A stretch of DNA of 64,000 bases from Nemertoderma westbladi (taxonomy: Eukaryota > Animalia > Xenacoelomorpha): positions 1 to 64,000 of the forward strand of contig JAUCBJ010005005.1 in assembly GCA_032718475.1 (NCBI GenBank), written 5' to 3'. Made by a program: the position numbers and the translations under genes. Below, piece after piece: positions 12,875 through 57,411 of the stretch. The notes under the pieces are model-generated. The model was not told where the DNA came from. It made no database searches and saw only the letters and a program-made list of their open reading frames with translations. Position 1 is the first letter of the stretch. The number at the start of each line of letters is the position of its first letter.

Positions 12875-13404
12875 TGTTAGCTTATCCAATTCCGCTAACA
12901 CCCCATAAAGTTATAAGCCGATAAGCAATATTGGGAGCCACGAGATTGGATAATTAACCAACTCGTGCCATCCCAATAAGAGTGGGAAGCAAGCACACAA
13001 TAAAGGGTCAGGGGCAAAACCCCTAACCCAGAGAGAACAGATGGAGTGAACGGGAACACTCCACGGGGTGCCAACAAGGGCATCAACCAATCAGAGGGGG
13101 GCAAGGCATCGATTAGGTAGTAATTAGGCCAACCGTGCAATATAAAAAGTAATCCAATATCAGTAATTCAGTTATCTCAGTGCAGTAGTGCTAGCATAGG
13201 TTAATTAGTTTAGATAGGGGAGCACGGGACTTTTAGTTACCGTATCCCGCCTTCCATATACTATACAATATATCTATATCTTATACCTTTATTATTATAC
13301 ACCGAACTTCAGAACTCATTTTACTTTCATTCACTCTTTATACACGGCGGGGACGCGTGAACTAAATACCGGATAAATCGGGATCCCTCCTGGATCCCGT
13401 CACA
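12875..13404 (+). repeat. Element C 5' LTR
   Basis: Direct repeat of 19537-20066. CCAAT at ~13087, TATAAAA at ~13141, TCAGT at ~13160-13172. Confidence 0.95.
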
Positions 13405-13414
13405 GTAACTAAAA
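13405..13414 (+). promoter_or_regulatory. Element C primer-binding position (GTAACTAAAA): non-tRNA, complementary to its own LTR at 13231-13240
   Basis: gtaactaaaa abuts the LTR end; ttttagttac is at 13231-13240 and 19893-19902. Confidence 0.72.
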
Positions 13415-13465
13415 CCAACCGCTGCCCTAGCTAGCCAAACCATCAGCCACCAATTACCAAAGGAG

Positions 13466-16400
13466 ATGAGTCAGTCAAGAAAGACGACACCGCCGCGGAC
13501 CCCGGACGGCGATCTAACGATCCGCGAGGCCGCGACGAGACGGTATGCACCCACAACGCCGAACCCATCGAGAACGGGCCATCCGGCGATCCGAGACGAG
13601 GGGGGCCGTCTACAGCGAGAGGACGAGACGGGAAGGAAGAAAGACGAGTCGACGCGGAGCGAGGGTCGACGTACCGATGTCGCCGGCCAGCCACAGGCCG
13701 AGGGCGACGGACGACCCACCGGAACGGCGACGGTGGGGCCGCCGGTACGACGTCGGGCCCGGAGAGACGGAGGAGAGGTCGGCGACGAGGACGTCGGGGT
13801 TTCTGATCGACTTCGACGGGCCTACCTCGCGACCCGGAAGCAACTGAGAGAGGCCAGAGGAAGGGCGAAGATAGACAAGGTGAGATTGACAAGAGGACTA
13901 GGTGAGTCGAGCAGATACTTTGATTACCTAATGCGTTTTGGGCAGAGAGAACTAGCCGAGGAGAGGGCGAGGGGAGTTGCCAACGAACTGATTGAAGTAT
14001 GGGAGTGTAGGGGTATGGAACCTAGCGTAGTGTACGTAGGGCCATACTTAGTCGATGCCCGGGGAGTAAAATTAGTGGGTTGGAAGAGACCTGAGGAGGG
14101 CGAATCCGAGGTTAAACCCGAGGATTCGGTCTCGTCGGTCGGAGGAAGTTCCGGGAGGCGGGGGAAAGTTGGTGGGACGGAGGGGCGACGGGAGTCCGTC
14201 GCAACCGATAAGTCTGCTACATCCTCCGCAAAAGAAAGAAGGGTGCGGGAGATAGGTCTGACGTGTGAATTAGAAACGGTGGCGAATGAGCAGAATGAGT
14301 TAGAGTGGCAATTGAGAGAGAAAACCGCATTGTTGGAGGGAGAAGAAGAGTGGGCGAGGGAGTGTAGAGAGGAAGCCGAGGGGTGTAGAGAGGGAGCCGA
14401 GGAGTGTAGAGAGGCAGCCGAGGAGTGTAGAGAGCGGGAGATGGGAGTAGAGAGCGAGTCGGCGAGGCGGTTGGAGATGACTGCGAGATGGTCAGAGTTG
14501 GAAGAACAGAATATGCGAGAGAGAGAGATAGAGAGTAAGCGCGTGCAGGATGATTTGCGTGCCCAGCTAGAGAGGCTTACACAATATCAAGCCGAACTTA
14601 AACGGCGCCGACTAGAACTGGCGCGGTTGGAGATATCAGAGAGTGAGCCCCCACTTACGGGCACCGGGCGAGAGAACCAGAACTGGTGTAGCCGTACGGG
14701 CGGGGGGGGGGGGGGTAATAGTAGTACGTTAGGAAATGTTAATATTAATAGTACCGTAGTAGATAATCCTAATCCCTTTATTGCAGCAAATAATATTTTA
14801 CCTGGTAGTAGTAATTTAAATTTAAATTCAAATAATAACATTCAATTCAAATAATTCGAATATTAATTTAAATTTTGAAAATAATAATAATCCTAATTTA
14901 ATTAATTTAAATCTCGTTTCAAATTCTAACAATTTAATTGATTTAACAAATAATATTGGGAATGGTGCTATTAATATGAGCGTGTCGGACGTACATAACT
15001 CAGCAGACGAGGGCCTGGTAGGCCACGTAGTTAGTAGGCAGGAAGTGGCAGGGTTGAGCCAACCCGACGGCGGCCTGGTAGGCCACGTAGTTGGTAGGCA
15101 GGAGGTAGCGGGGTTGAGCCAACCCGAAGTGGGCCTGGTGGGCCACGCAGTAGTAGAGAGAGAGGCGGGGGTGAATAGACCCAGCCGTAGTAAAGACAGT
15201 GCGTCGACTAGAGAGGGGTGTAGAGACGAAGTAAGAGATAGTGAAGTTAGATGTGGCGGGTGGGTGGGGGCTACCGGCGCCCCACCACATAAGATTAGTG
15301 GCGAGAGAGGGGGGGCAGAGAATGCCCCACAAGAGGGACGCAAAAGTGTAGTAAGAGATAGTGAAGTTAGAAGTGGCGGGTGGGGGGTGGCTACGGACAC
15401 CCCACCGCGAGAAGTTAGTGGCGAGAGAGGGGGGGCAGAGAATGCCCCACAAGAGGGGTGTAGAAGTGTAGTAAGAGGTAGTGAAGTTAGAAGTGGCGGG
15501 TGGGGGGGGGGGGCTACGGGCACCCCACCGCGAGAGATTAGTAGAGAGAGAGGGGGGGCAGAGAGTGTCCCACAGCCGTCAGCGGATAATGCGCGGGCCG
15601 AATCAGGTAAACCGCAACACCCGGCGACGGAGAGTAATAGGGGGATTGCGAGTATCCCCAGCGGCGTGCGATCGAGCAGAGAGAGGCAGGTTGACGTCGC
15701 GAGAGGGCAGACGAAGCGTCGAGCCCGATCAGAAGAGGGAAGAAGAACAGTGGAGTTTAACCGGGAGGTCGACGAGAGATCTCATGAGCCGGAATACTGC
15801 ACTGAAAAGAGAAGAAGAGGAGATAGTAGAAAAAGTGTCGCCACGAACGATAGGAGTACGATGACGGATAACGGACCGTCGATAGTAGAGATGGAGTTGG
15901 GGAGTCAGTGGGGTCGAACTTCGGGAGATTGCCGTCGCCCCGGAGAAACGCACCGCACGCCAAGAGAGGGGTACAGGACGTACAAATACGAAGTCGAGAA
16001 CAGGAGAGGGGATCGAAGAGAAGCTTCCCGACGGGATATAGCTGCCGATCGAGAGTGCAGTAGTCGCGGGGAGATTCGAGATTCGCGAAGAATAAACTTC
16101 GGTTCGGAAGGGCACATGCAGACTGCAGGACATACTGTAGGCCTTACTGCACATACTATTATAGGCCATGCTGGGAGAGATAGAGTAGGCGATAGGGTAG
16201 CGCGAACGACGGGATTAAACCCGGAAGTCGCGGAGTACATACCGGTAGGTAGGCGAGAGGTAGGTAGGCCTATATCGGTACAGCAGCATGACTATAATAC
16301 ACAGGGACATAACATATATCCAGGGGAGGGGGGAGTTATTGGAGATAGACGTATGGGCCCCAATGTATTAACATCAACCCCAGTACCAAACATACCGGCC

Positions 16401-17267
16401 GGGGGGGGACAGGGTGACATTCCCCCATCACAATATCGACAATATACCCCGATAGGAGCAAGAACATCGAACTCCCTGGACGAGAACAGGTCGTGCGGAC
16501 AGTCACCACCACACGCGGCCGTACAGGGGACTGCTAGTCCACAGTTAGCTGGTAGCAGGGCCACACCGTGGCAGGGACAGAAAGAAAATAACACCATAAA
16601 TAAACACAATCCCAATATACCCAGTAGGCCGAGTCTAGACAACCAAAACATTAAATCGGTACATATAAACCTAAGCGCGATACGTGAAGGACTATACAGG
16701 AAACGCTATAATCCAGGATTCCAATGTCAATTACATCGGGACGGAACCCATAAGACCAGGAGTTGTAAGTACTGGCAAGCGTTGCCCAAACGAGATCGTG
16801 TAGCCTACACAGACGCAAACGGACTATGTCATCGATGTGTGGTAAAAGGACACAGATCCGGAGAGTGTTGGAAAGGGAGAGGATGTGAAAGGACTAAACC
16901 AGGGGCAGAGAAGCCCATTAGCAAACATAAGGGAGTCGGGAAAGTAGGAGGAGGCGTGTTGCATACACACGCAGGACGGACACAGTGCGAGGGGGCATTG
17001 CACGGGCAGACACCGCGTATACCGAGGGACGAGCGGGGGTCGTCGAGGGCTCTAATGCCAGCGCACATACGAAGGGGGAGGCCAGCAAAGGTGGCACCGA
17101 AGAGAGTGTGGCGAAGAGTTAGAGGACGTATAGGAGGGCAGCAGGAGAGTGCCTACTGGAAGAAGGGGCACGTGAGAGTTTTTAGTCGTCCAAAGTTTTG
17201 GACTGAGGGGGGTGGGAATGAGGGCGAGACGCCCTTCCCACGCACAAAATATAAAATAATTATTTAA
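13466..17267 (+). pseudogene. Element C gag-like protein (ORFs 13466-14854 and 14976-17267, joined by a frameshift near 14840)
   Basis: Coiled-coil N-terminal half, Asn-rich linker, 40-aa repeats, BEL-type knuckles CQLHRDGTHKTRSC and CHRCVVKGHRSGEC. No protease, RT or integrase motifs. Confidence 0.7.
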
Positions 17268-17319
17268 TTAGAATTAATGAAAATAATTAAATAATAGAGT
17301 AGGTAGAAGTTAGGTAGTA

Positions 17320-18960
17320 AGAATTAGTTAGTTAGAGGGTGGTACGTAGTACCGCTAGTTAGTTAGAGAGTTAGAGGGTACGTAAGTACCGCTAATTAGT
17401 TAGAGAGTTAGAGGGTACGTAAGTACCGCTAGTTAGTTAGAGTTAGAGGGTATGTAAGTACCGCTAGTTAGTTAGAGTTAGAGGGTACGTAAGTACCGCT
17501 AGTTAGTTAGAGAGTTAGAGGGTACGTAAGTACCGCTAGTTAGTTAGAGTTAGAGGGTACGTAAGTACCGATTAGAGAGTAAGAGTTAGAGGGTACGCAG
17601 TACCGTTAGAGAGTAGGAGTTAAGGGGTACGTAGTACCATTAGAGAGTAAGAGTTAGAGGGTACGTAGTACCGTTAGTTAGTGGAGTTAGAGTAAGAGTT
17701 AGAGGGTACGCAGTACCGTTAGAGAGTAGGAGTTAAGGGGTACGTAGTACCGTTAGAGAGTTAGTAAGAGTAAGAGGGTACGTAGTACCGCTAGCTAGTA
17801 GAGAGAGCTAGAGTAGTAAGAGGGTACGTTGTACCGCTAGCTAGTAGAGAGAGCTAGAGTAGTAAGAGGGTACGTTGTACCGCTAGCTAGTAGAGAGAGC
17901 TAGAGTAGTAAGAGGGTACGTAGTACCGCTAGTTAGGGGTGTTAGTAGTAGCAGTAGAGGGTTGTGGGCACCACGCCACGTAGTTAAGCGCCACGTAGTT
18001 AGAGTTAGTAGGGAATGCGCTGAACTTAGTGGGGCACGGGCGTGATGATGTGTTTGATGTAAGAGCAGGGTATGTTAATTAGGGTGGGTGCCGGGCACAA
18101 GAGGTGCCGGGCACAAAAGGAGTTAGTTGAGTTAGTAGTAGAGTTAGTTGAGTTAGTAGAGAGTTAGTAGAGTTAGAAGGTGCCGGGCACAAGAGGTGCC
18201 GGGCACAAAAAGAGTTAGTAGAGTTAGAAGGTGCCGGGCACAAGAGGTGCCGGGCACAAAAAGAGTTAGTAAGAGTTAGTAGAGAGTTAGTAGAGTTAGT
18301 AGAGTCAGTAGTAGTTCACATAATTAACGTACCCACTCTGCCGGCACTCCAGAGCGTCACGTGTAGGCGAGTAGACGTAAAGGGAGTAGATGCAAAGGAG
18401 GTAAGTTAGAGATAGAGTAGAGTAGCAGGGAGGGCACATAGGGTGCCAAGTAGTAGAGTTAGAGTGTTAGAGGTAGTAGAGAGGGCACATAGGGTGCCAG
18501 GTAGTAGAGTTAGAGAGGTAGTAGTGTAGTAGAGAGGGCACATAGGGTGCCAGGTAGTAGAGCTAGAGAGGTAGTTGAGTAGTAGAAGGGCACATAGGGT
18601 GCCAGATAGTAGAGTGGTTGTGGGCACCGCAAGCGCCACGTAGTTAGAAGAGTGGAGTAGAGTTAGTAGAGCTAGTTAGTAGAGTTAGCAGAGCTAGTGG
18701 AGTAGAGTTAGCAGAGCTAGTGGAGTAGAGTTAGTAGAGCTAGTTAGCAGAGTTAGTAGACTCAGAGGAGTCAAGTAGAGTTAGTAGAAGTAGAAAGTTA
18801 GTAGGAGTTAGTTAGACTTAGTAGAGAGTTAGAGTCAGTAGAAAGTTAGAGGCTCTCAGTTAGAGCTAGAAGTAGTAAGAGTTAGTAGTTAGCAGAGTTA
18901 GTTAGATAGTTAGAGTTAGTAAGCAGTAGGTAGATAGTATGATAGCACAGGGGTAGCATT
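17320..18960 (+). repeat. Purine-rich tandem arrays with embedded short inverted repeats in the element C 3' region
   Basis: (gagggtac-gtaa-gtaccgctagttagttagagtta)n, (ggtgccgggcacaa)n and (gggcacatagggtgcc)n with tagagttag spacers. Confidence 0.9.
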
Positions 18961-19536
18961 AGAGATTAAAGCCATAGGGAGTGACAAGAGAGTGGAGAGG
19001 TGATAGTGCGGAGTGCGGAGAGAGTGGTGTAAGTACTATAGTCATACAACCTTTCTCAATTAGCTACTGGGACTGGGGGGCTAACTGACTATGGCACTAG
19101 GGACAAGACGCCAGACGATTTCACATTTCCTGAGTGCGACGGCACGGAGGGGGGGTGAGATTCGTCAGAAGGGATAAGGTAGTCAAGGAGGGATGGAGTA
19201 ATAGTGCGGAGTGCGAAGAGAGCGTGGGCGCAATTCAAGTGTGGGGGAGGAGAAGTGAGAGGAAGAGTGTGGGACGAGGAGGTCCGGGAGTATGGGAGAG
19301 TTGGAGTAGAGTGGTGAGAGTGTTGGGGAAACAAAAATTGTGTGAGAGAAGCGCACGATCGGCCCGACACGAGACGCCAGAGGGTAGTGACATCATACCC
19401 ATAGGGAGCGGCCTGGAAAGCCGACTCCGAAAAAATATACCCACCCCACACCCGATGCTAGATCGGGATCCAGCGGAATTGTAGCGCACTTTAGTTGGAT
19501 GCTATCTTCTCACCGGGAAGATAGCATGGGGGGGAG

Positions 19537-20066
19537 TGTTAGCTTATCCAATTCCGCTAACACCCCATAAAGTTATAAGCCGATAAGCAATATTGGGAGC
19601 CACGAGATTGGATAATTAACCAACTCGTGCCATCCCAATAAGAGTGGGAAGCAAGCACACAATAAAGGGTCAGGGGCCAAACCCCTAACCCAGAGAGAAC
19701 AGATGGAGTGAACGGGAACACTCCATGTGGTGCCAACAAGGGTATCAACCAATCAGAGGGGGGCAAGGCATCGATTAGGTAGTAATTAGGCCAACCGTGC
19801 AATATAACCAGTAACCCAATATCAGTAATTCAGTTATCTCAGTGCAGTAGTGCTAGCATAGGTTAATTAGTTTAGATAGGGGAGCACGGGACTTTTAGTT
19901 ACCGTATCCCGCCTTCCATATACTATACAATATATCTATATCTTATACCTTTATTATTATACACCGAACTTCAGAACTCATTTTACTTTCATTCACTCTT
20001 TATACACGGCGGGGACGCGTGAACTAAATACCGGATAAATCGGGATCCCTCCTGGATCCCGTCACA
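19537..20066 (+). repeat. Element C 3' LTR
   Basis: Direct repeat of 12875-13404 with 7 substitutions counted by eye. Confidence 0.95.
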
Positions 20067-22086
20067 TTAAATATTGTGTGGTATATGTTTCCACATCTCC
20101 ATATCGTTGTATTCTTTCCTCCTCGAATAACACGTCAAGATTCCAGTGTACTAAACGAGTTTTGATGAATCCATCAAGATTATACGGAGGTATTGTTTCT
20201 TTCTCTATTCTGGAAACATTGTATGGTTTTCGAAATGAGTTTATTTTAACCAACTGATCCAGATGTTTATGCAGTTGTTCGAGTTCGACAAGATCAAGAG
20301 GATTTATGAGTGGCAGAAACCTCAGACTATGTGTAGGATCTTCCGGTTTTACCATGTAATATTGTGTTAGGTTAACGTAATAAGGGTGATCTTTGATCCC
20401 ATAAAACGAGTCCGGTAAAGGTCTAGCGCGTATGTTTACATCGTGTACCATGCGACAGACAAGATCCGCTCTATTGTCCGGAGGTTCAACGAGTATACCA
20501 TCTACACGAGCGGCTTCGATGGGTGGACGTTGCAACATGGGAGCGTCAGCGATAAGCTCTCTAGATCTTAGGTTGATATCAACCGGTTGGGGTTGTATCG
20601 TCGCAAAGAGTTTGTCTCCGAAATGGGGAACCATCGAGGGATGAAGGATGGTTTTAGAGTAGAGATCCGTCATAAGGATTTGAGCTTCGGGTTGAGCTAA
20701 AGCTGCTTCATCTCTCTCATCTAGTTCTATATGTCTCTCCTCGAGCTGATTTTCCTCCGCTTGTTGTTGTAGACGCTCATCTAGGAACTCTTGTAAAGAG
20801 TAGGTTCGTCCACGTTCGATGTCCTCTTCGAGATTTTGTATTTCTCTATCGAACTGGGGTAAAGCTAATTCCTTCACCGCTTGGACTTGTTGTTGCAATT
20901 TATGTTTCTCCAAACAATCGTAAGTTCCTTTTCCTATTTTCTGCCGAATAGCATCTAACACGTTTCGTACGACGCTCTCTTCGACTTCCGTAACGGGTTA
21001 TATCGAGGTGAAGCTGGGACGGTTGTGTGGGTTAAACGGCGATATTAGATGACCGCGTCCCAATCCAGTTAGGTAGGGTTGGCGAATATCTAGTGAGCCT
21101 ACTACCGGAGTACCACCGATCAACTGTTCGGGTAACACTAGATCTTTGAACAGTGAGTACAGTTCGGGAGGATCCGTGATACTATTAGGATCAAGAGTCT
21201 GAGGTCTAACTGAGGAATGAGGAGGTCTGACCGAGTATTCCGGAACTCTGATCATTGGTTTGTTCAAGGATCGTTTGAGTCGAGCGACCGTAGGGGATAC
21301 GTCGAACAGGTTTCGCTCGAAACTCCCATAAGTATATCGTGTAAAACTGTGTTTAGCGCAACGTCTCCGCGGATGTTTATGTCTTTCCGTTTGCTGATTG
21401 GGTCTAGGGCATTCGTCGCAGTAATACCAAAGACGCATGTCCTGCAGGGGAAACGCGGGTGATCGTTCTCCAGTTTTACAATATTCCTCCATCTGTTCGA
21501 AGCTATCTGGGACGACAGGTAGCGGTCGATCGGCGGTAAGATACATCATAGTGAAATAGAGTCGTTTGAGTTCTATCATAGGATCATGATGTATACCTTG
21601 GGGATATCGAGTTTCGAGATTTTGTTGACTGGCAATATTGAGATATGTCTCTCTCAGGAATTCCAGATAATCGTTGAAGTCGCTGCGTTTATCCGGCTCT
21701 TCAACGTCTTCCCTTTTGAGTTTGTTTCGAATAGAGTTCTCGTGTTCTATTCTCGGTTTATTGTTCCGACTCCGCTGGGTATGATATTTAAATAAAACCA
21801 TTTCCCTTTCGGTGTCTACATCGTCCGTATCGTGTAAATCGATAGGATGGCCAGTAGTTAAGAAGTCCATATACGTACCATTACGATGCGTATAGCGAGC
21901 GGTGAACTTTCTATAATCCAATTCACGCGTAAGTTGCTCCTGGGACATTGGCGGTTCGATATAACGACCATCATCCTCCGTAGTAGTTGGACCAGCGTCT
22001 CCGCGTATCAAGCTATCGACACACGCTTGTAAAGGTAGAGTATATCGCTCCCTAATACCGAGATCATCTTCTATCAACTCAGTCAT
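20067..22086 (-). pseudogene. Element B accessory ORF, N-terminal part (TAA at 20998; interrupted by element C)
   Basis: Removing C and one TTAAA restores the frame ...TQYL-KYRDLPNASECATLWHP. Element A has Gln where B has the TAA. YYCDEC...RCAKH matches D YYQCGSC...RCSNH. Confidence 0.75.
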
Positions 22087-30361: not shown

Positions 30362-30373
30362 TATATCCGTTAT
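30362..30373 (-). promoter_or_regulatory. Element B primer-binding position (ATAACGGATATA): non-tRNA, complementary to its own LTR at 31099-31110
   Basis: tatatccgttat (30362-30373) is the exact reverse complement of ataacggatata (31099-31110; also 10110-10121). It abuts the LTR and has no TGG. Confidence 0.75.
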
Positions 30374-31541: not shown

Positions 31542-31546
31542 ATCTC

Positions 31547-46000: not shown

Positions 46001-49000
46001 CCATGTTAGTCCATCCTTCCAAATACTGCGCATATAAATGCGGGCTTGCAGTATTACTGGACTGATGAATCCTAACGGATCGAACAATCGGCTCAATTTT
46101 GACAAGCATGATCTCTTTGTCAGTGTGTTCTCTTGACTGTCCAGTCTCACCTTCACTCGGAAGTTGTCCGTGTTTGGGTCCCAAAAGAGCCCCAACACCT
46201 TGGTCGTCGGTAGTGGTTCGAACTCTAGGTCTATGTCACCACCTCCATGCTCAGTCGTTCCGAATGAGTCTACTAATTCGGCACTGTTTGAGGCGAATTT
46301 GGTGAGGTTGAAACCTCCGCCCGCCAAGCAGTCCCGTAATTGATGTGCTACTGTTGTAGCACGTTCTACTGTGTCGCAACTCTGTAATCCGTCGTCGACG
46401 TAAAAGTCACGTTCCACAATCCTAATTATCTCTGGGTCATATAGGTGTTTCTGATCTCTAGCGGCTTGTTTTAGGGCGTACATCGTGCAGTTTGGGCTGT
46501 CCCTGGCACCGAAAACGCGAACTTGCATTTGGTAAGTCGTCGGTGGTAGACTTAAGTCTCCTTCCGGGTACCAGAGGAACCGCAAACTGTCTCTGTCTCG
46601 CTCTAACGCTCTCACTTGGTGAAACATCGCTTCAACGTCGCAAGTAAAAGCTACTTGACGCTGACGGAAGCGCATAATCACCCCCATAAGATAATTATTC
46701 ATGTTTGGTCCATCCATCAACTCGCTATTGAGGGACATTCCCTCAAACAGAGCCGCACAGTCGTTGACTACGCGTACTTTGTCTGGTTTGTCGGGGTGTC
46801 TCACGTAGTGATGTGGCAAGTAATACGTCTGGTCAGTCACTCGCTCCGGGTTAGTCATCCGGATAGCGTATCCCTTGGTCAAATACGTCTCCATCTGAGT
46901 GTTGTACTGCAGATGGGCTTTCTCGTCCTTTAATAGACGTTGTCGGATTGAGTGTAGACGTCTTAACGCTAGTGGGTAGTTGTTTATAAGTTTAGGACTT
47001 TGGCTACGCCATAACATCCCCACCTCGTAATGTCCGTCCTCCGTCTGTCGGATAGTATCTTCCATGATCTTCAGAGATTGTTTCTCCTGTTCCGACATAC
47101 AAAGTTCGTAGCTACCAGGTTCAGCTGTATCTTGTTCTAACCACCTGATAGTCTTCTCCGTTAATTCCTTGTCCAGTGCAGCTTGTTCCATTTGATGATT
47201 TCTCAACGCGTCATCATCGATCTCGACGGGCATTGTTGATGTCGTTGGGGTAGGTAGACTCGCAAGCCTTCCGGCGTTATCATCTGTCGTCGATGGAATC
47301 TCTAGCTGACTCGTCTTCTCCCCAAGTTCTAAACTCCGCTGGTGGATTAGCTGCTCCTTGTGACTTATCATACTAGTCACACGTCTGTCACGTTTTGTCG
47401 ACTGTAGTGTAGTATGGTTCACGTCGTGTGAGAAGGAATGAATTGAATTTGTAGTTAATAAACTACATGTACTTTGTACATCGTCTTCCTCGTCACTTAC
47501 GTCTAGTGTGCGCACAGGCGCTCGAGTATACCACCCTATCGGCGTTCTGCAGCCGTATGCGTTTCCCGCTACGACTGCCGATGGTCTGGTTTCCCACCCC
47601 TGATGTAGGTTGAATTGGTCTGTCCCGATCAGCATGGCTACCGATCGATAATTGACAGGACATTCAGGTACACCAAGGTGTCTGAAATACTTACGGTCCT
47701 CCAAGGATTGTTCTGGGACCGGACCTAGTAGGTTACTAAAGTCTTTTGTGGCCGCAAAGGTCAAATCCTTGAAGGGTAACAAAGACCTCTCCCTCTCGCT
47801 GTGTTGCGATTTCGGAAGAAGAGAGTCTAAGTTTAACTTGACTCGTGTCACTGGTATTGCACGCTGTCCGTGCATACTACTTACGGTATAACTGACGCGC
47901 TTACCTTGTCTGAGATCCGTCACGACGTCAGCTATCTTTTCATCCACGTAGCTGTGAGATGAGGCTGAATCTAGAATCGCGTAGATTCTCTTACTCCCCT
48001 TTGTGCCAGTAATCTTAATTGGAATTACACTGAATCCCTTCAGTTGGTCAGTAGTCAGAAGCGCGATCGATGGCTGTTCATCTCCATCCGAATATACGTC
48101 GTCGTCTTCTGACTCTTCGTCCGACGATCCGGATTGTTCTGAGAAGCAATCCTCAATATGGGTCACGAAGGTCGGAGTCGTTTTCGATTCTCGTTTTCTG
48201 TAGGCCGCATCACATCTCGCTGCTGCTTCCGGGTGTTCCCTGGCGAAGCGTTTTGTCGGCGTGTGGCTGTCCGTGTGGAGCAGACCGTCGTGGTTGCGTC
48301 CACAGGATGGACAAGTGTCGGTATTTGGGCAATCTTTACGGACGTGTCCGTGTCGCGTACACCGCCAACAAGAGTCCAATGGCCGTATTTGCAGCCGTCG
48401 TTCTTCCGAGTTCAACTCGCGAAACTGTCGACAACCTCGCAACTTGTGACCGATATACCGCTTGCCTAAATGCTCGCAGTATTGGCAGCCGCTGAAGTCG
48501 GTACTGAGTTGTTGTCTCGTCTGTTTTGTCCCAATGGGCGCAGATACCCTACTACCGTCCGAGAATTGTCGTGATTCCGTCGGTGTGGCGTAAGTGGCCG
48601 TCTTGGTGGATGTTGTCTGAGGTTTTTGTCGGTTGGAGGATGGCAAGGTGATCCCTTCTGCTACGATGTGCTGGTCAGTGTAGTTGGATCGAGTTTCTAC
48701 AACTGCTTCCCTGGATATCAAAAGATACACATCCTCTAATTTTAAGAATCCACCCCGCTCTTCTCGCTGGTATTCGATCTTTCTCCACTCCCGACGAAGT
48801 CGATGGTGGAGTCGTCCTATGATTTTTAATAGGACTGTAGGGGTATTCCCGTAGTCAAGTTGTCCAATGGATCTTAAAGTAGTGATAGCGTTCTTTATCT
48901 CGTCGGCCAGTTTTAATAAGTCGACGGGTTTAGTGATAGCCCCTCCCTTACAGAGTTCCTCTATTACTGACCTGGCCATACTGACTGTACCTCCGTATAT

Positions 49001-50905
49001 CGAAGTTAAACGATCGTACGCTAGTTCGAAGGCGTCCGGTACACCAACGAAGGTCTCTGCCAAACGTTTAGGTTCTCCTGACAACGTTTGAAGCAGGTAA
49101 TTAAACTTCTCCCGTGATGTAAAGGCGCACACGGCGATCTGAGATTCGATATAGTCTACGAATGTGTGCCAGTGTTTTGAACTACCGGAAAACTTCGGTG
49201 GTTGTTGTACCGGCAATCCTTGCCTGGCTGCGAATTTCGCTATCTCCTCGGCAACGTTCAGAGTTTCGCGTCCTTGGTTGGTAACCTGGTTGGTGTTCTC
49301 CCTTCTTGGCGCTTTTCCCTGATACGATGTATGTTTTGAAGGTACCGGTCTTTGTGGTTCCTTCGGGTGTCTATTGTGTTCGAATTCGGAATTTCTCGAA
49401 CTGTCGGTGTAACCTTCCTCCAGACGCTCCTCGATCTGAGCCAACTTGTTAACAACTGGTCGCAGGATGTCGGCGAACTGTTGTGCACTGATTGCGTCCG
49501 TTGGTTGTAACGCCTTCTGTGTTGGTGTATTCTGTGGAGGATTGTCTACAAAGGAGTTATCTGAACGCTCGCGTTTATATTCATCGGCCGCCCCTGTTCT
49601 AAATACCTCGCGTTTCGGGTAATCCGATTCGCTCGAAGTACTACTATCATCTGGATATGGTGGTCGACGTGCTCGCGTCCGTTGCGTCGTACGAATTCTA
49701 ACATTTCGCTTTGGAACATCGTCCACTGATCTCCGTTGTTCGGTAGGCTCACAAGTCTTCCTCGAAGTCGTAGATTGCGATGTAAACTGATTGAACGGTC
49801 GCGTATCCACTGTTCTCCATTGTTCGGTAGGCTCACAAGTCTTCCTCGAAGTCGTAGATTGCGATGTAAACTGATTGAACGGTCGCGTATCCACTGTTCT
49901 CCGTTGTTCGGTAGGCTCACAAGTCTTCCTCGAAGTCGTAGATTGCGATGTAAATTGAACCAGTGGTCGAGTAACAGCGTTTGAATCCAAAGGCCTTGTT
50001 GGCCTAAACGTCATTGGGTAAGCATAGTGTGTAACAGGTTTTGGCGTCAGAGGTGGACTCACCTGTTTTGTCGTCAGTAGTGCAGGTCCGACTAATAAAC
50101 TACTACGATCTGTAATCGGCGGGTTACTTACCTTTGGAATAGGCGACGACGTTGCTCTTGGCGGTGTAAACTTGTCCGGAATAATAAACCTGTGTTCCGT
50201 CGCACCATGGATAGGAGAAATATCACTACTACCCGCAATCGAAACAGGTTTCTTAGTTGTAACTGGTGCGAACATAGGGGTTACTTGAGGGAATCTTTGA
50301 CATAAGTCCTTTACTAATTGTCGTTCCCGTCCAGGTGCTCCTATCGAACCTTCCTTCATTCGTTCCTGGATTTGGCGATGCCTTACCTCTATCTGGTCCA
50401 AATCATGTCCGTCACGAGATCTCATCGATCGATCACGGGCTAGAAGATCCAGATTTTCCTTGGTTTCGGCTAATTCTCTCGCCCTTTTCTCAAGTTCGAA
50501 ACGAAGTTTAACTTCCTTTTCTCGTTGTTCCGTTTGTTGTTGTTGCGCCTCGAACTCTGCTTGTCGTATCGCTTGTTGGGCTTTTATTTGCCGTGTCTTC
50601 ATCTCGACTCTGGCTTCTGAAACTAACCTTTTTCTTTCTAACTCTGCCGCTGCCGTTTGTCGCTCTAACTCGGCTGCCGCCGTTTGTCGCTCTAACTCGG
50701 CCGCTGCCGCTGCCGCTGCCGTTTGTCGCTCTAACTCGGCTGTTGCCGTTCGTTGCGCTAACTCGGCCGCTGCCGCTTGTTGGGCAATGTCCAACTCTAA
50801 CCTTTCCATTTCGGCCGCTTCGAGTTCGGCTTGTTCCTGCAGATGAGAGATTCTCGCTACATTCGCAACACGTATTTTCTCTTCCTCTACCGCTGTTTGT
50901 ATCAT
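43034..50905 (-). CDS. Element D Gag-Pol polyprotein, BEL/Pao family (2623 aa open; true N-terminus lies upstream and is disrupted)
   Basis: Gag PPKFSGS, knuckle CWRCTRHGHVRKDC, protease AILDSAS, RT YYLPHH...FYVDD, Pao RNase H LHCFSDAS...NPADIASRG, integrase HHCC and GIDCF...YSDQG...VWERL, C-terminal RPTQRLVLL. Confidence 0.95.
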   Translation of the reverse strand: MIQTAVEEEKIRVANVARISHLQEQAELEAAEMERLELDIAQQAAAAELAQRTATAELERQTAAAAAAAELERQTAAAELERQTAAAELERKRLVSEARVEMKTRQIKAQQAIRQAEFEAQQQQTEQREKEVKLRFELEKRARELAETKENLDLLARDRSMRSRDGHDLDQIEVRHRQIQERMKEGSIGAPGRERQLVKDLCQRFPQVTPMFAPVTTKKPVSIAGSSDISPIHGATEHRFIIPDKFTPPRATSSPIPKVSNPPITDRSSLLVGPALLTTKQVSPPLTPKPVTHYAYPMTFRPTRPLDSNAVTRPLVQFTSQSTTSRKTCEPTEQRRTVDTRPFNQFTSQSTTSRKTCEPTEQWRTVDTRPFNQFTSQSTTSRKTCEPTEQRRSVDDVPKRNVRIRTTQRTRARRPPYPDDSSTSSESDYPKREVFRTGAADEYKRERSDNSFVDNPPQNTPTQKALQPTDAISAQQFADILRPVVNKLAQIEERLEEGYTDSSRNSEFEHNRHPKEPQRPVPSKHTSYQGKAPRRENTNQVTNQGRETLNVAEEIAKFAARQGLPVQQPPKFSGSSKHWHTFVDYIESQIAVCAFTSREKFNYLLQTLSGEPKRLAETFVGVPDAFELAYDRLTSIYGGTVSMARSVIEELCKGGAITKPVDLLKLADEIKNAITTLRSIGQLDYGNTPTVLLKIIGRLHHRLRREWRKIEYQREERGGFLKLEDVYLLISREAVVETRSNYTDQHIVAEGITLPSSNRQKPQTTSTKTATYATPTESRQFSDGSRVSAPIGTKQTRQQLSTDFSGCQYCEHLGKRYIGHKLRGCRQFRELNSEERRLQIRPLDSCWRCTRHGHVRKDCPNTDTCPSCGRNHDGLLHTDSHTPTKRFAREHPEAAARCDAAYRKRESKTTPTFVTHIEDCFSEQSGSSDEESEDDDVYSDGDEQPSIALLTTDQLKGFSVIPIKITGTKGSKRIYAILDSASSHSYVDEKIADVVTDLRQGKRVSYTVSSMHGQRAIPVTRVKLNLDSLLPKSQHSERERSLLPFKDLTFAATKDFSNLLGPVPEQSLEDRKYFRHLGVPECPVNYRSVAMLIGTDQFNLHQGWETRPSAVVAGNAYGCRTPIGWYTRAPVRTLDVSDEEDDVQSTCSLLTTNSIHSFSHDVNHTTLQSTKRDRRVTSMISHKEQLIHQRSLELGEKTSQLEIPSTTDDNAGRLASLPTPTTSTMPVEIDDDALRNHQMEQAALDKELTEKTIRWLEQDTAEPGSYELCMSEQEKQSLKIMEDTIRQTEDGHYEVGMLWRSQSPKLINNYPLALRRLHSIRQRLLKDEKAHLQYNTQMETYLTKGYAIRMTNPERVTDQTYYLPHHYVRHPDKPDKVRVVNDCAALFEGMSLNSELMDGPNMNNYLMGVIMRFRQRQVAFTCDVEAMFHQVRALERDRDSLRFLWYPEGDLSLPPTTYQMQVRVFGARDSPNCTMYALKQAARDQKHLYDPEIIRIVERDFYVDDGLQSCDTVERATTVAHQLRDCLAGGGFNLTKFASNSAELVDSFGTTEHGGGDIDLEFEPLPTTKVLGLFWDPNTDNFRVKVRLDSQENTLTKRSCLSKLSRLFDPLGFISPVILQARIYMRSIWKDGLTWDEPISSDQVDLWKTWEAELSSLEEYSIPRVYFPLQSTFPDNLELHCFSDASDNGFGVAAYLRRQVDSEAFDVSLITSKAKTMPTKYMTTPRAELQAATLSTTIVNLIQTELQSSLQIFYWTDATLVLFYINNDTLEFKTFVANRRAEILDRSIKEDWRHCPGPQNPADIASRGMMSEEFCKPENKEFWQHGPQFLQKSTQDWPPLYDNKSNTIPKDAEIKKPKKGKAKKKTTTAKLKKKPKAKWKAITSKVKRGRLASLSTPDISPDGQPDTLPDGQPDTLLDGQSDILPDISNALTNSKAAVSLLERPSIDKQPDTLPDVSPDTLLDSRLDTSNVLTNSEAAVSLLERPCIDKLPILTHLSNHKHGETSCITDVGSTYANVNTGVTLRSRDIPNLQPMVKPGINVGSKLSLPKPADPIEFKPPLTIDLQSTDNQGKKTKKDKLLVDPEGSTVNKGILTGGPVGPSSNSKPSKISIDLPDDVTNTHVDRIVNLTDSWTSACRKLAWIVRFVQYVKGKRDFTRRLTLTEIERCEIKLIRHYQLRYFAREFTSINQGQPIKSSPILSWSPIIYNDLICHKSRLQNIDFNTNFRYPIIIPQHHELQRAMILDAHLHLKHAGRHHCLSYLRTRFVLIRPSKALSSVTRTCIICKKVHSRIGTQEMSELPQARLQAFRPPFTETGIDCFGPIHTKRGRILVKRWGLIFTCMSSRAVHIERVMDLSTNAFILALRRFIARRGLVKCLYSDQGTNFVGARNEIARAFKKLDHDQISNELQPHKIVWKFNPPDSPWRGGVWERLIRSIKTAMAKVIPVNHILTDDQLTTLFVEIEAILNTRPIVLVPDDKQSQFALTPAHLLMQAPTTLTPISIPIESDSYGRKAWKITQLLANKFWEIWQNHYLPSISARTTWYNNTRALKPGDHVLLAEVNLKRRFWITGVILATHPSMDGVTRTVTVRTIDGRTVDRPTQRLVLLEETRNESGDYKSPPNTSK

Positions 50906-50930
50906 TCACTTGTGTCCTTCTGGGCTCCTC

Positions 50931-52096: not shown

Positions 52097-54689
52097 CCTC
52101 TTTAGGTAGCAGTTGAGTTTGTTCTTCCATCTCGTGTTGCTGTCTGTAGAACTGTTGCTGTTGTCGAGCAACTTCTGACGTGACCATGCTTACCTCGTTA
52201 ATCTCGCTGCGAATACTCACCAGTGATTGATTCAGTATTCCCGGTGCCGATTCGATTCGTACGGGTGAAGTTTCCCTCGTATATTCCGGCACGGTTTCCC
52301 AATCTCCGACATCCTCGCCGCACCCCAGTTAAACATGAGTATGTGTTTCATATATGGTTGCCATAAATAATTCGACATGTGATACATATATGTAAATGTT
52401 ACAGTGTTGTCAAATGTGATCCATATGTGGAATGTTCACATGTGATACACATATGTTTTTTATGTGACAAGTGCGACAAAAAGAGTAAAAATTTAAACTG
52501 AGACCGACCAATCACTGGTGTGGGTCTGCATTTCCTATAGAGAGGTGGGGCGGGGGGGGGGGGTAGCCTACCTCAGTGCCATTATCCTATCCAATCCCTA
52601 CACCCTATCCTACGGCCCTACACCTACCCTATACATTTAGAGAAGGAAGCATCGGAGTATATATGACAATATTTAATCCATAGTGATATGAGAGTATCCT
52701 TAATAGATTTTGGTGATGATCCGTAAATTCGTATTCTATTAGTTAGATTTAATTAAGTTATCTAATTTCCAGCTATAATAGATTATTCATTTTGATAAAT
52801 CTTCGAAAATTAATTAATTCTAAGATCATATAAATGCTCATATGATATTTTATATCTAATTTTAAGACATCTTTTCCCTACAACATATATATACCACATA
52901 TGAAACATATGTTCAATTTTTTAACGGGATAAGAACTGCAATAGGCCTGCCTACCTTACGGATGGTATAGTGCAAGTATGTTATCTGTCTATGTCTGTAC
53001 CCCTTACTGATACTTAGCAGCGCAGATGACAATGCACAACCACAACCTGACAAGTGAAAACCACCATACAGTCATACATATGTTTGTCTAATTCTGTTAA
53101 TACAGCACTGTACAGTGCAAATGCACAGCACAATGTGCATAGTGCAAGGCAGAAAGCAGGCAAGTCACACACTGCATCACTGAACAATTGAGTGGACTAT
53201 GATAAGCGGTAGGCTTATGCAACGCATTATGCTGTTATGGGTAAAATATAAAATAATTTGCGATTCACTAGCTAAACTGCAAGCGACACGACGTGGTTAA
53301 GAAGAAAGATTGCAGGATCAGACTATGAAATGCCTATCATTTGAAGAATGTGTCCCACCACCAGCCCTCCAATGCAATAAACAAAACAATTGGACGATCG
53401 ACTATGGTTACTTCAATTTAGTGTCCATACAGCCTTCACAGATCATTCAAACCTTATAGCAGGCCTATGTCTGTATGTATTGATTATACATTATATGGTT
53501 AAATAGCCGGTACTTTGAAAATACAGTATAACAAAAAATATAGATTCAACGTATTATACTGCTGATTAAAACGATATTTGTTCTTAATGCAAAAAGCTGA
53601 GTAGTGACATCAACAAATTCCGCATCCCCCCTCGTTATTCTTTTCTGTACATGTATTACTGTAAGGCCTGTATTACCATAAGGCAAACATGTGTGCAACA
53701 TATAAAATCCATGTACTGGATTACAAAATTACGAATTGAATAGTTTATAGATTGAAATTTAACTTCGGAGTCTTGGCTATGGCTATTTCACATATGCTCG
53801 ACATATATTATTCACATGCGCATTCTCACACATTTATTTATGATAAATTCATATGTGCAACATATAAATACCATAAATGGCGATACACACATTCTAAGTG
53901 TATGTATCACCGCATGCGTGACATGTATTATTCATACATGAGCATAAAAACCCAATTTCCAGACACACCTATTCCATACAACATATATATACCACATATG
54001 AAACATAAGTTCATGTTTAACTGGGACATACGTAAGTGGTCCGTCAGATGTTTCAATTGTCCATCCAGTCGGTACAGTTCCTGTTCTTCCTCGGGCTGTA
54101 ATAATTCGTCCGAAACTGACTCACCTAACAACTGGTCCGCTTGTTCCTGTTGTATCTGTCTAATCGTCGACTTAAACTGAATCAGTTTCTCTCTAGCGAT
54201 CATTAGTTTCTCGAGGATTCTAAGTTGAGTATCCATGTCCTGTCTCTGTCTAGCTAGATCTTGTAGGCCAACTAGATTATCTACGGACTTATATACTTTA
54301 CTCTGTACTCTAACCTGGAGGGTGTAGAACTCGAATCGAGACATCGGAGCGGTCAACTCGTCTAATATGCGTTGGCCTTCTCCAATACTCCTGGTAATAT
54401 GCGCCATGTATCCACCGACGCTTCTAACCACGCTCTCCTGGCTTCCTGCTGAACTTACCATGTCCGTTTCCCTGTATCTAGGTTGCGGAACAGTTAGAAA
54501 GTCCTCGGTCCTGCCGTCGCCTCGTACTACGGCATCCGGTACTCCCGTTGGATGTACTGGTGACGCACACGGTGTAGGTTCGGTAGGCTCGCGAGTCTTC
54601 CCCTGTTGTTCTTCCGCTGCTGACTTATCCGCGTCACACGAGTCATAGTCGGTAGGTGTGTTCTTCGTATAGTCTTGTTTGTCACTCAT
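52097..54689 (-). pseudogene. Element D gag N-terminus (MSDKQDY...), split by the EnSpm-like element
   Basis: The start resembles B gag (MSDTKQ..CDLDRS vs MSDKQ..CDADKS). Removing 52324-54025 and one AC restores HLRM-CGEDVGDWETVPEY in frame. Confidence 0.75.
52324..54025. mobile_element. Non-autonomous CMC/EnSpm-like DNA transposon with CCCAG...CTGGG termini and 2-bp TSD AC
   Basis: TIRs cccagttaaacatga (52324-52338) and tcatgtttaactggg (54011-54025), with ac on both sides. Confidence 0.8.
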
Positions 54690-55487
54690 TTCGGTAGTTG
54701 TAAGTCAAGTAAAGTGAGTGTCAAAGTATCGAGTTTACCGTATTTATATCTAAACGGTACTAATTACAGTCATATAAAATTAGCCTACCGGCCGATTTTA
54801 TAGCAGATGGATAAAATTAGCCTAAACGGCCAATTTTACAGCAAATAAATGTCACGGAATAAGTATATAATAAAATTAGCCTAGCGGCCAATTTTATAAC
54901 AAATAAATCGGATAACGATATGCGTTATCAAAAGGTAAATTAAATACAATAATACGGACTAATTCAGCAATGAACAAAGAAATCATACGGAATGCATAAA
55001 TACTTGAGACAGTGGAACCCACAATAATTTTAACTAATACGGTAATGCCTAACTTATTTATGCAACTTTTCAAACTCACCCACTCCAATAATTCTCCAGA
55101 AAAACAGATTCCCAGATACAAACCGAACGTGAACCTTTCCGTTTCCAGCGTTGCGGACGAAACGCGATTTTCCCAACCAAAGTTGTTGAGTTATCTATCT
55201 CCCAAACTTGCTAAACACGGTCTTGCTCCCGTTACAGTCTAGAAATGAGTTCTGAATCCTGAAAAAACAAAAGAGTTAGGTTTTACTTTACGAAAATTTT
55301 GTACCGGTACAATATGGTATTTAAACCCTTTTAAACACCGGTATTCAATTCCAAAAATATTTTACGCGCGGTTCAAATCAAATTTTATTTCAAAAAATTA
55401 GCACTTAGCTAATCAAATATAAATTTTTACCTCAAAATACAAAATTTTCAAATAACTTTAGTCCTACCGAACCGTAGTTCAGTAAAA

Positions 55488-55498
55488 CACATTCCTAC
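55488..55498 (-). promoter_or_regulatory. Element D primer-binding position (GTAGGAATGTG): non-tRNA, complementary to its own LTR at 56526-56536
   Basis: cacattcctac (55488-55498) is the exact reverse complement of gtaggaatgtg (56526-56536; also 37049-37059) and abuts the LTR. Confidence 0.75.
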
Positions 55499-57411
55499 TA
55501 TTGGAAGAGACAGCAACAATACCTGCAATATCCTACTGTAAAGTTTGTGAATCAAATCATAAATCCGACCTTCTCACCAAAACAGTAAACTCTAAGTAAG
55601 CGAATATATTGCAGTATCGATCTCTTATAACCGGTGAGGCAGAAAACAGTCTACGAGCAGACAAACTTCGATGAAACAAAATCCCGCGCAGCGAATCCTA
55701 AAATCAGGCTGACTCACTGACGGACTAAGGGGCTCGTATACTTTGCCGCGGTGTGATTTATATGGTTGGGCGAAAGAGACGCTAGCTAGGTACAGAGGCA
55801 GAGATTTGGAGATGTCTAACTAGCGGGCAAAGCACAGTACGGACAAAAGTTAATTTTATATATTTTGAGGTGTAAATAATTTCTAACGCGCGTGTTAATT
55901 CTGAACGGTCAAAAGCAGTTTTGCTCCTTCACATATATAATTACTGGGTACGGTGTGCATTTTACGAATATTCTAATTTTGTAACTCGTAGGTCCAATAC
56001 TCACGAATGATAAGGTTCCTTTCCCTCTTGCGTATTTCCAGGACTCAAATTCAGGCATAAGGTTAATGCTACGCCCAGAATTCGGCAATTTTAGGTACCA
56101 GGTCCCTGATACTAAGAAGAGATGTGTTAGTTTACTACTGTAGGCGTACAGTTACTAATAGCTATCCTGGCTCCTATCTAGAATTTTAGTCACCCAGGTA
56201 GTCCGGGTAACTTCCTATTAGGGCGTTGGCGGGGACACGGTAGATGTTAGTATCCCTAATAGCCTCAATTTATTTGCGCCTAGCTGTAAACTGCCCTACC
56301 GCCTGAACGGTACAATCCCAATTCAGGTGAAAACACAGCAACCCCTCTAGCCTACAAGTTCTAATGCAATGGACACCGTTGTACTACAAATAGTCGCACA
56401 CGCACCTGCACTTAGCAAGAGTTAGGCGTACAGTTTGCTGCACCCTACCAATTTGTATGCTTCGTACCGGTGTGCCTACGTCCTATCTGCGTACTAGTAT
56501 CTGCCTGCTCTTTCCCTCTCCCCCCGTAGGAATGTGAAGGTCTACTGTGGGTTTTCCTGAATCAAGACAGTACAGTCCCTAAGATGTAATTTTAGGCTCA
56601 CAGCGTGTCACTACTTCTACCTTTTGATCTTTTGGTCTTACACTTAGGTAGCAAGGCGTCGAACGCTGTCTAACCTTTCAGGCGATGGGCGAATAACTCA
56701 AGATGGTATTGCGGGTTGTCTCTTGTCTACATTCCCCCGATGTTCCCGTTCATTGCTGCGGCCCGATCTCTAGCTGGCCATCCTGTCCCTTAGCTGGGTT
56801 CACCGTAGTGAATCATGGTAAAACAGATAGCTAAACTGGCTAAAACAGATAAAAAAGCAGATTAGCGATAATTCTGACTTTATTACAGAAGATATAATTA
56901 TAATACAATGTAATCTGAAATAAACTAAGCACGACAGAATTAAAGTGATGTGTGTGATAGATATTGAATGAGATAACTAATGAACAAATCGCACCTTTAT
57001 ATACTAAATTTGTGCCGCAATCAATCGAGAAAATTCTCGATTGTTCTATAGGTTCTAACAGGTTTTTAAAGATAGCTATTGGTCCAGCTAATATATAACT
57101 TGCACGACATTGGTTACAATCAAATAACTACAGTCTCATTGGTACAGACAAATGCAATTAATTTGTAGCGGTTAATTTAAATGAGTTGAAATTCTGCACA
57201 AAAATAATTCGCACTTACTAGGATTCGAACTCAATACCTACTACACATATAATTACCAACGCTCTACCGACTGAGCTACTGAACCACTTGACCAATAGGC
57301 GTATAAATAGAAATAGCAATACAAATGAGGACTCAAAGCAATCTTTACAAAGTTAATTCGAATAAAATAAAATTTTGAAAATCCACGGCATTTAGGGAAT
57401 ATAATTCTATA
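55499..57411 (-). repeat. Element D 5' LTR (1913 bp)
   Basis: Direct repeat of 36022-37914. Three minus-strand CCAAT boxes (~57078-57143) and TATATAAAG at ~57000. Confidence 0.95.

Follow-up and report, generated by a model that had tools for sequence, protein, structure and literature searches.

Candidate self-priming from an internal LTR segment in BEL/Pao retrotransposons of Nemertoderma westbladi

In this study, which was based on a 64,000-nt stretch of Nemertoderma westbladi DNA (the window) and on the comparison of its elements with their relatives, we propose that three LTR elements, B, C and D, likely begin reverse transcription with their own RNA, by a Tf1-like self-priming with an internal cut. 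Complementarity between the bases that follow the 5' LTR and a segment of the same LTR was observed, as was its alignment with the LTR end. The complementarity also recurs throughout the clade, each time in other letters, and a compensatory change was seen.

Results

Element B (9385-31541, minus strand) covers 22,157 bp including the inserted element C. It has kept its gag, in a frame at 25120-28359 (minus) with DUF1759; most of its pol has been deleted and its ORF2 is interrupted. Its 5' LTR (30374-31541, minus; 1168 bp, TG...CA) and 3' LTR (9385-10553, minus) are 99.5% identical, and the target duplication is GAGAT. Element C (12875-20066, plus strand; 7,192 bp) is non-autonomous, with gag remnants and tandem repeats only; its 5' LTR (12875-13404, plus; 530 bp, TG...CA, TATAAAA at 13141) is 98.7% identical to the 3' LTR (19537-20066, plus), and the target duplication is TTAAA. 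The only open gag-pol frame belongs to element D (36022-57411, minus; 21,390 bp), which also has an extra ORF, and no usable pol is left in B or C. The 5' LTR of D (55499-57411, minus; 1913 bp) ends in TA...TA, not TG...CA, and is 98.7% identical to the 3' LTR (36022-37914, minus), with the target duplication TGGTC. Its gag-pol (43034-50905, minus; 2623 aa) comprises DUF1759, Peptidase_A17, an integrase zinc domain and DUF5641, and the YVDD of the reverse transcriptase and the acidic residues of the RNase H and integrase are all readable in the translation. All three elements are intact-ended and flanked by 5-bp target duplications, and a polypurine tract adjoins the 3' LTR in each. An older sister of B, B', is represented by the 5' part of its 3' LTR (31542-32403, minus), the continuation of that LTR (9182-9379) and internal remnants (32404-36021 and 57412-58015); no 5' LTR of B' was found within the 64,000-nt window.

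The initial annotation had described the three as BEL/Pao-type LTR elements, which is borne out for D by four Pfam domains (PF03564, PF05380, PF17921 and PF18701), for B by a PF03564 (DUF1759) gag and pol remnants and for C by a gag zinc knuckle alone (profile of BEL relatives, i-E 7.8e-10). PF05380 was present in all of at least 120 relatives of D, with 39-44% identity among the matches listed. Membership of the Tf1/sushi group, as judged by a Ty3/gypsy chromovirus reverse transcriptase or integrase, was rejected because the Pfam domains and homologues place D in BEL/Pao. Judged from their sequences, B, C and D are young BEL/Pao LTR elements.

The primer-binding position of B (30362-30373, minus; 12 nt) is an exact complement of a candidate primer segment at 31099-31110 (minus; LTR 432-443), which ends in AT. 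The same holds for the 10 nt of C at 13405-13414 (plus) and its segment at 13231-13240 (plus; LTR 357-366), and for the 11 nt of D at 55488-55498 (minus) and its segment at 56526-56536 (minus; LTR 876-886), both segments ending in AC. These matches had been claimed before, and all their coordinates hold. So does the lack of a tRNA signature, since TGG is absent from the first 25 bases after the 5' LTR in all three elements (0/3), and with it the 18-nt tRNA-Arg or tRNA-Gly site of the ICTV description. The helix had been said to end at the LTR boundary; indeed, the match starts at the first post-LTR base in B, C and D, and the next LTR base is unpaired with the last base of the LTR. The further pairing that had been reported was recovered with Watson-Crick counts of 22/27 (B), 11/13 (C) and 10/11 (D). 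In D, a second helix is predicted just past the primer end, where 56515-56522 (minus) pairs with the LTR end at 55503-55510 across a 3x4 internal loop. The three sites are unrelated, as had been noted, and none of them matches an LTR other than its own, the longest cross-match being 9 nt. Splicing at an AG inside the C segment was considered and rejected, as the match would become shorter and the contiguous form is the best.

With matches of no more than 10-12 nt, and with long LTRs in B and D, chance has to be weighed, together with a template-switching by-product in which an inverted piece of the LTR was copied beside the LTR end. The observed match length was reached in 2, 4 and 1 of 5000 dinucleotide shuffles of the LTRs of B, C and D, respectively, and from 0, 2 and 6 of 1969 alternative starts within the following 2 kb. 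The host flanks of the 3' LTRs, used as a control, gave matches of 4-5 nt only, and the pairing of the 45-nt primer tail with the primer-binding side was equalled or bettered by 1/223, 0/95 and 4/372 LTR windows. The combined shuffle result over three unrelated elements argues against a coincidence. When the LTR of D was compared with contigs from sequencing runs, 0 of the 40 variant rows listed, out of 177, fell in the paired segments, and one run, presumed to be RNA, was gapped over both of them; neither result is informative about the pairing.

The relatives of these elements showed the same relationship, mostly across a predicted intron in the LTR. Under a splice rule that was set after the first 77 loci had been viewed, so that neither of these results is independent of it, a complement of 11-15 nt to the own LTR was found at the site in 8/8 distant relatives whose LTR end is fixed by two copies, and a scan of 59 loci gave 24 with at least 11 nt (mean 3.6 and maximum 9 with fake splice sites), among which L046/47 and L071/77 are near-identical copies and L032, L042, L055 and L070 are chance-like. 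Six of the eight distant relatives match only across a predicted GT-AG intron and two contiguously, at offsets of 0-4. Shuffled primer-binding sites reached these matches in 0-1 of 300 trials, as did fake splice sites in the five spliced cases so tested. Where the LTR end of marine-type BEL/Pao relatives could be tested, no TGG site was found (0/8). Among five held-out elements, three passed the same automatic test (11, 11 and 14 nt; 0-1 of 300). The remaining two can be accommodated by allowing an 8-nt offset or a single mismatch; of these, L086 fails the automatic test (8 nt, 19 of 300) and L090 lies outside it. By their sequences, B, C and D are intron-less at that spot of the LTR. Moreover, locus L040 has a splice acceptor at the match spot in one LTR and an intron-less form in the other. 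As the match in the relatives spans a predicted exon junction that is absent from the DNA, copying of an inverted DNA piece is a poor explanation for it. A plain inverted-repeat scan of the relatives was too noisy, and a repeat at locus L079 was rejected as an LTR.

The initial annotation had proposed covariation between the site and the LTR in related elements as a check, and one case of it was found: in addition to the eight relatives that match their own LTR, the sister loci L084 and L085 have two differences in the primer-binding site, which are matched by two differences at the corresponding positions of exon 1. More than 20 different site sequences were recovered, each matching its own LTR. 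It had also been claimed that the elements form a self-priming BEL lineage; self-priming withstood all of the tests that were run, but the lineage is not a small odd one, since the pairing is clade-wide in the relatives. In a FastTree phylogeny of 86 rows, from which five loci with short matches were dropped, spliced and contiguous types were scattered and D sat among marine relatives on a branch as long as 1.19; the tree has no tRNA-primed outgroup and does not give the order of events. The offset of the helix from the LTR end counts against self-priming: it varies from 0 to 8 nt in the relatives, which would require variable processing of the end.

These data also bear on the idea that selection maintains a real pairing for a structural or regulatory purpose (packaging, dimerisation, a translation switch or a splicing check), with something else as the primer, e.g., an internal tRNA fragment. 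Copia lineages that are primed by half-tRNAs are known (PMC6317226), and BEL/Pao elements are tRNA-primed according to the ICTV (PMC8742986). However, the paired site is the place where the primer must bind, so that the pairing would block it, TGG is absent and more than 20 different sites each match their own LTR. The compensatory change in L084/L085 would be unexpected if a tRNA reset the site in each cycle; moreover, in contigs of the sister families of B the sequence differs from B inside the site (two single contigs). Neither Rfam nor ARAGORN found a tRNA or ribozyme in the window, and a single DicF match (E 0.84) was taken as chance. We regard this explanation as improbable.

Further regularities concern the primer end. 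As in B, C and D, it is AC or AT in 9/12 relatives (ACT in three). Of 12 relatives, 10 have a poly(A) hexamer in the LTR, and in 10/10 it follows the primer end at a distance of 1-94 nt, the arrangement that would be needed for strand transfer after a cut. Among the window elements, the canonical hexamer is absent in B, only upstream in C and on both sides of the primer in D. The common end motif and its position relative to the poly(A) signal are a further argument against chance and template switching, which are very improbable and largely excluded. The use of the primer end as a 5' splice site was rejected, because few loci have a GT directly after it. When the whole leader was folded at equilibrium, the helix had a probability of 0.44 (C), 0.42 (D) and 0.00 (B), and of less than 0.1 in 5/12 relatives; like the hexamer positions in B, C and D, this speaks against self-priming. 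In B, C and D, the primer end is preceded at 100-480 nt by promoter-like motifs, and a TATA/Inr-based guess of the start predicts primers of about 75 nt (C), 105 nt (B) and 450 nt (D). The earlier suggestion that the primer is internal, unlike the first 11 nt of Tf1, is thus strengthened: the upstream promoter-like motifs and the predicted two-exon primer of the relatives argue against a primer that consists of the first ~11 nt of the transcript.

The extra ORF of D (ORF2; 38649-42485, minus) reads as 342 aa, a stop and 935 aa, and contains a predicted DEDDy 3'-5' exonuclease domain (about 40380-41045, minus) followed by CCHC knuckles. In B, the exonuclease-like and CCHC part lies in two frames at 11172-12876 (minus), and the upstream part, which contains a stop, lies beyond the C insertion at 20062-22119 (minus). 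A programmed stop is unsupported, as the stop of B is absent in B'. The motifs DxE (ExoI), D (ExoII) and YxxxE (ExoIII) are common to D, B and two remote homologues; the ExoIII motif of D thus has E where the DEDDy pattern is YxxxD. A low-confidence model of D ORF2 (mean pLDDT 46) matched EXD2 (Z 7.5, rmsd 4.8, 108 aligned) and also Rrp6, WRN and RNase D, and 24 of its 30 Atlas matches were 3'-5' exonuclease clusters, with a very high score. By sequence, D ORF2 had no match in Pfam or PDB; a profile-free search of representatives gave three matches, one through the zinc knuckles alone, a short-word search returned no homologues and no relatives were found among viral contigs. ORF2 was absent by tblastn from 98/98 related loci. 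The extra ORF with a predicted DEDDy exonuclease domain in B and D is a new observation.

This ORF could suggest that self-priming acts in trans or by trimming, with a short LTR transcript, whose cap, leader and poly(A) all come from one LTR, or another packaged RNA that anneals and is trimmed to the helix by a 3'-5' exonuclease, which in B and D might be their own DEDDy ORF2. The predicted motifs, fold and Atlas matches of D ORF2 agree with this, the succession of LTR intron and poly(A) signal resembles a terminal exon, and a role in 3'-end processing has been floated for the DEDDy ORF3s of rotifer Gypsy elements (PMC5408684). However, the related loci that lack ORF2 include many with the pairing, so this exonuclease is unnecessary for self-priming and was dropped as the general source of the primer end, and the conserved AC/AT end suits a specific cut better than trimming. 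Such a route is unlikely, although a little less so than a structural role of the pairing.

Discussion

For Tf1-like self-priming with an internal cut, we infer a start site, a cut, an enzyme and the priming itself, as follows. The capped leader would fold onto the primer-binding position and be cut just after the conserved AC/AT, 75-450 nt into the leader, which would place a 3'-OH at the LTR boundary; the enzyme is probably the RNase H of the element, as in Tf1. In this scheme, strong-stop DNA would be copied from no more than the RNA that follows the cut. It would then transfer to the 3' LTR transcript, which would pass the cut point and run to the poly(A) signal, and the 3' copy would supply the sequence that precedes the cut. 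In most relatives, host splicing would remove the predicted GT-AG LTR intron and thereby assemble the primer, and for B and C the pol would be supplied in trans.

The closest parallel is found in Tf1 and Tf2 of Schizosaccharomyces pombe and in the Tf1/sushi and Tcn1 groups of Ty3/gypsy chromoviruses, which also lack a tRNA site and in which ~11 nt after the 5' LTR complement the own LTR transcript; in Tf1, RNase H cuts between nt 11 and 12 to free the primer (PMC7175516). In contrast, B, C and D belong to another superfamily, and their primer is predicted to lie 75-450 nt inside the leader, not at nt 1-11; moreover, in most BEL/Pao relatives it spans a predicted splice junction, with an offset of 0-4 and once 8. 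Self-priming has also been predicted for the TAR lineage of plant Ty1/copia elements (Houba, Osr-1) from an LTR match of 10 nt or more that begins 0-5 nt after the LTR (PMC6317226). Such a match is present in B, C and D as well, but the TAR elements are Copia elements of plants, and the available text of that source mentions no involvement of introns. The fungal GalEa Copia elements likewise lack a tRNA site and have conserved RNA pairing at that position; their "conserved hairpin site" is, however, local to the internal region, and its authors found no LTR complement (PMC5445492).

According to the ICTV, Belpaoviridae (Semotivirus) have an 18-nt site for tRNA-Arg or tRNA-Gly, a genome length of 4.2-10 kb and an LTR length of 0.2-1.2 kb (PMC8742986). 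The gag-PR-RT-RH-IN order, the LTRs, the polypurine tract and the animal host are shared; D differs in having no tRNA site, a length of 21.4 kb, 1.9-kb LTRs and an exonuclease-like extra ORF in place of env. The absence of TGG in the window elements and their relatives questions the generality of the tRNA statement, not the protein-based placement. For the extra ORF, the bdelloid rotifer LTR elements Juno and Vesta offer a comparison, as their ORF3 has a DEDDy exonuclease domain (PMC5408684); in both cases an RNase D-like DEDDy domain, which in D is a predicted one, is encoded by an additional ORF after pol. However, Juno and Vesta are not described as BEL/Pao in the accessible part of that source, and D ORF2 exceeds their ORF3 greatly in size, contains CCHC knuckles and is nearly without database relatives (three matches).

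A broader reading, taken as one joint claim, is in our view moderately probable. A large marine branch of BEL/Pao would do without tRNA priming and use an internal leader primer, which the host spliceosome would assemble by removing an LTR intron and which would be cut at a conserved AC/AT; splicing would gate reverse transcription, and the unspliced 3' LTR copy would pass the intron on. B, C and D would be giant or defective intron-less offshoots, and the DEDDy exonuclease added in two of them may complete the end of the primer or act against small-RNA silencing by the host.

A literature search of main article texts found no published report of self-priming in BEL/Pao elements, the replication of which has been described as "poorly understood" and tRNA-primed (PMC8742986). 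So far, self-priming has been documented in Tf1/sushi-type Gypsy elements, and a single Copia lineage of plants is predicted to use it. If the proposal is true, this would be the third independent use of self-priming, in a third LTR superfamily, with a primer that is internal and usually built by splicing. It would tie LTR replication to host splicing, explain the missing primer-binding site in many aquatic BEL/Pao elements and give annotators a simple rule for placing LTR ends. It would also bear on whether self-priming or tRNA priming is older.

Results

LTR elements lie nested within one another in the window. Three of them (B, C and D) have LTR pairs that are 98.7-99.5% identical, a purine tract adjoining the 3' LTR and 5-bp target duplications. 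D (36022-57411, minus strand, 21,390 bp) encodes gag-pol in an open frame of 2623 aa, in which Pfam finds four BEL/Pao domains. Its RT-RNase H region is only 39-44% identical to the 120 best database proteins; mussel, acorn worm, echinoderms and corals account for most of the named ones, which makes a marine invertebrate the likely host. B (9385-31541, minus strand) has kept gag, with pol reduced to scraps, and C (12875-20066, plus strand), inserted in B, has only gag remnants, which were recognised with a BEL-relative profile. The fourth element is B', B's older sister, which has no 5' LTR within the window. In this stack (9182-58015), C lies in B, B in the 3' LTR of B' at a point corresponding to position 940 of B's own LTR, and D in B'. 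At 21.4 kb, D, which has TA...TA ends, is twice the size range stated for the family. The 2-kb leader of B contains a 289-bp tandem duplication (29775-30347) and the 4.6-kb leader of D a 258-aa reading frame without a known family (53928-54704). The U3 of D includes a tRNA-like stretch (57197-57296, minus strand) with what we take to be A-box- and B-box-like motifs and a T run at its end, for which ARAGORN and Rfam gave no call; contig depth at 57016-57267 (run X4) is far above that of the remainder of the D LTR, as if this stretch were shared with a more abundant repeat. Further features of the window are a 613-bp inverted repeat (91%; 1-1383), a LINE-type RT frame (PF00078; 2168-3274), a SHIPPO-repeat frame (PF07004; 3876-4670) and, by eye, a second LINE-type RT remnant (~63690-63730).

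No TGG is present at the site directly after the 5' LTR in B, C or D. The first 12 (B), 10 (C) and 11 (D) bases of this site are the exact complement of positions 432-443, 357-366 and 876-886, respectively, of the element's own LTR, with the helix ending at the LTR boundary. This arrangement, described in the initial annotation, was confirmed when the coordinates were re-read, and the extended pairings quoted there proved right on recomputation. Shuffled LTRs matched the observed lengths in 2/5000 (B), 4/5000 (C) and 1/5000 (D) cases, and alternative start points in the next 2 kb reached them in 0/1969, 2/1969 and 6/1969, while 1/223, 0/95 and 4/372 LTR windows equalled or bettered the primer tails as two-strand duplexes. 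Folding of the whole leader gave the helix a probability of 0.44 in C, 0.42 in D and 0.00 in B. A second helix, in which bases just past the primer pair with the LTR end, is predicted in D and recalls the extra stems that Tf1 self-priming requires.

The comparison set comprised 77 related loci collected from metagenome contigs by pol alignment (the best 80 of 555 confirmed), in eight of which the LTR end was fixed by divergence between the two copies. TGG was found at the site in 0/8, and a contiguous 11-nt complement like that of B, C and D only in L001 and L040. The LTRs of most relatives contain a predicted GT-AG intron, the exon junction of which would supply the complement. With the splice rules fixed, the match over the junction was 11-15 nt long in five further loci (offsets 0-4), compared with 6-9 nt unspliced; shuffled sites and fake splice sites reached this in 0-1/300 each, and every site paired with its own LTR only. 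Together with L046 (11 nt, tested separately), all 8/8 fixed-end relatives match. Of the 59 loci whose contigs leave space upstream of pol, 24 have a match of at least 11 nt (with fake sites, a mean of 3.6 loci and at most 9). This count takes in pairs that are near-identical and a few matches likely due to chance, and many negatives simply have no LTR. In one LTR of L040 (1-200 vs 6694-7103) a splice acceptor precedes the primer end, and the other copy is intron-less. This may record natural splicing and the reverse transcription of its product, although the copies are only 88% alike and may belong to different subfamilies. In U5, B (LTR 604-732) and B' (31760-31890) both retain a donor-like site and a block resembling a pyrimidine tract, branch point and acceptor, even though the two LTRs are ~67% alike in this region. 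These may mark an intron that lies downstream of the primer and would shorten the 725-nt loop.

Because the splice rule was derived from the first 77 loci, 21 later ones were used as a hold-out, 15 being long enough for the automatic test and five having a fixed LTR end. L084 (11 nt), L085 (11 nt) and L095 (14 nt) passed (0-1/300), L090 gave 12 nt at offset 8, and L086 failed with 8 nt, pairing by eye at 10/11 over a GT-AG junction. Covariation between site and LTR, which the initial annotation had proposed as a check, was found between the sisters L084 and L085: their sites differ at two positions, and the ends of exon 1 differ at exactly the two partners, which, judged from the sequences, is compensatory change. 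In two single contigs from public runs, the LTR end resembles that of B and the site behind it starts like B's but later diverges, as expected if no tRNA resets the site. The later loci (L078-L098) are BEL/Pao elements within contigs of prokaryotic MAGs, most likely through animal-host contamination of the assemblies.

The primer ends in AC or AT in 9/12 relatives and in ACT in the other three; it ends in AT in B and in AC in C and D. A single AATAAA/ATTAAA is present in 10/12 relative LTRs, and in 10/10 it follows the primer end at a distance of 1-94 nt; B has no such hexamer, C has it upstream only and D on both sides of the primer. Folding of spliced leaders gave a helix above 0.5 in 6/10, and in unspliced leaders the exon-2 part alone reached at most 0.03 in 10/10. 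The suggested RT phylogeny with D pol (86 rows) placed D on a long branch and scattered the spliced and contiguous types; neither a clade name nor a direction can be read from these rows, which include no named reference and none with tRNA priming.

Behind pol, a large additional ORF, ORF2, is common to B, B' and D (D: 38649-42485; B: 11172-12876 and 20062-22119; both minus strand); it includes a predicted DEDDy exonuclease domain and CCHC knuckles. Pfam and PDB sequence searches returned nothing, and only two convincing remote homologues were found among 1.84 billion representatives, both sharing the DxE, D and YxxxE motifs of its middle part. A low-confidence model (pLDDT 46) matches EXD2, Rrp6, WRN and RNase D (best match: Z 7.5, rmsd 4.8, 108 aligned), and 24/30 of its Atlas matches are 3'-5' exonucleases. 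Because ORF2 is absent from 98/98 related loci, it is an add-on and not the core of self-priming. It may help to finish the primer or may act against small-RNA pathways of the host. DEDDy ORFs are also carried by rotifer LTR elements (PMC5408684).

Discussion

BEL/Pao elements are described as having a tRNA-Arg/Gly site and a length of 4.2-10 kb (PMC8742986). B, C and D belong to this family by their proteins, but do not show its tRNA site. They would work like the self-priming elements of the Tf1/sushi group, yet lie outside it. Self-priming is recorded in Tf1/sushi, Tcn1 and TAR, with 10 nt within 0-5 nt as the criterion (PMC6317226). Full-text searches gave no account of BEL/Pao self-priming or of an LTR intron in this superfamily, including passages of PMC5445492, PMC6934838, PMC3601003 and PMC8220671 (subscription journals, Repbase/GyDB entries and supplements being outside this scope); the words "PBS" and "tRNA" occur nowhere in the Sinbad paper (PMC554778) or in PMC3118150.

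We propose that transcription would start near the TATA/Inr motifs and that the leader, spliced wherever an intron is present, would pair with the site that follows U5. Cleavage behind AC/AT, probably by RNase H, to which the Tf1 primer cut is ascribed (PMC7175516), would free a 3'-OH. RT would copy back as far as the cut, strand transfer would use the stretch between the cut and the poly(A) site, and the upstream part would be restored from the 3' LTR transcript. That relatives have retained the predicted intron speaks for a primer drawn from the 5' copy and for a 3' copy that mostly stays unspliced; if the latter were spliced now and then, forms lacking the intron would arise, among them one LTR of L040 and possibly B, C and D themselves. 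This cis, cut-based version is probable, and self-priming as such very likely. Self-priming, initially put forward for three elements, is supported and widened to a clade-wide signature.
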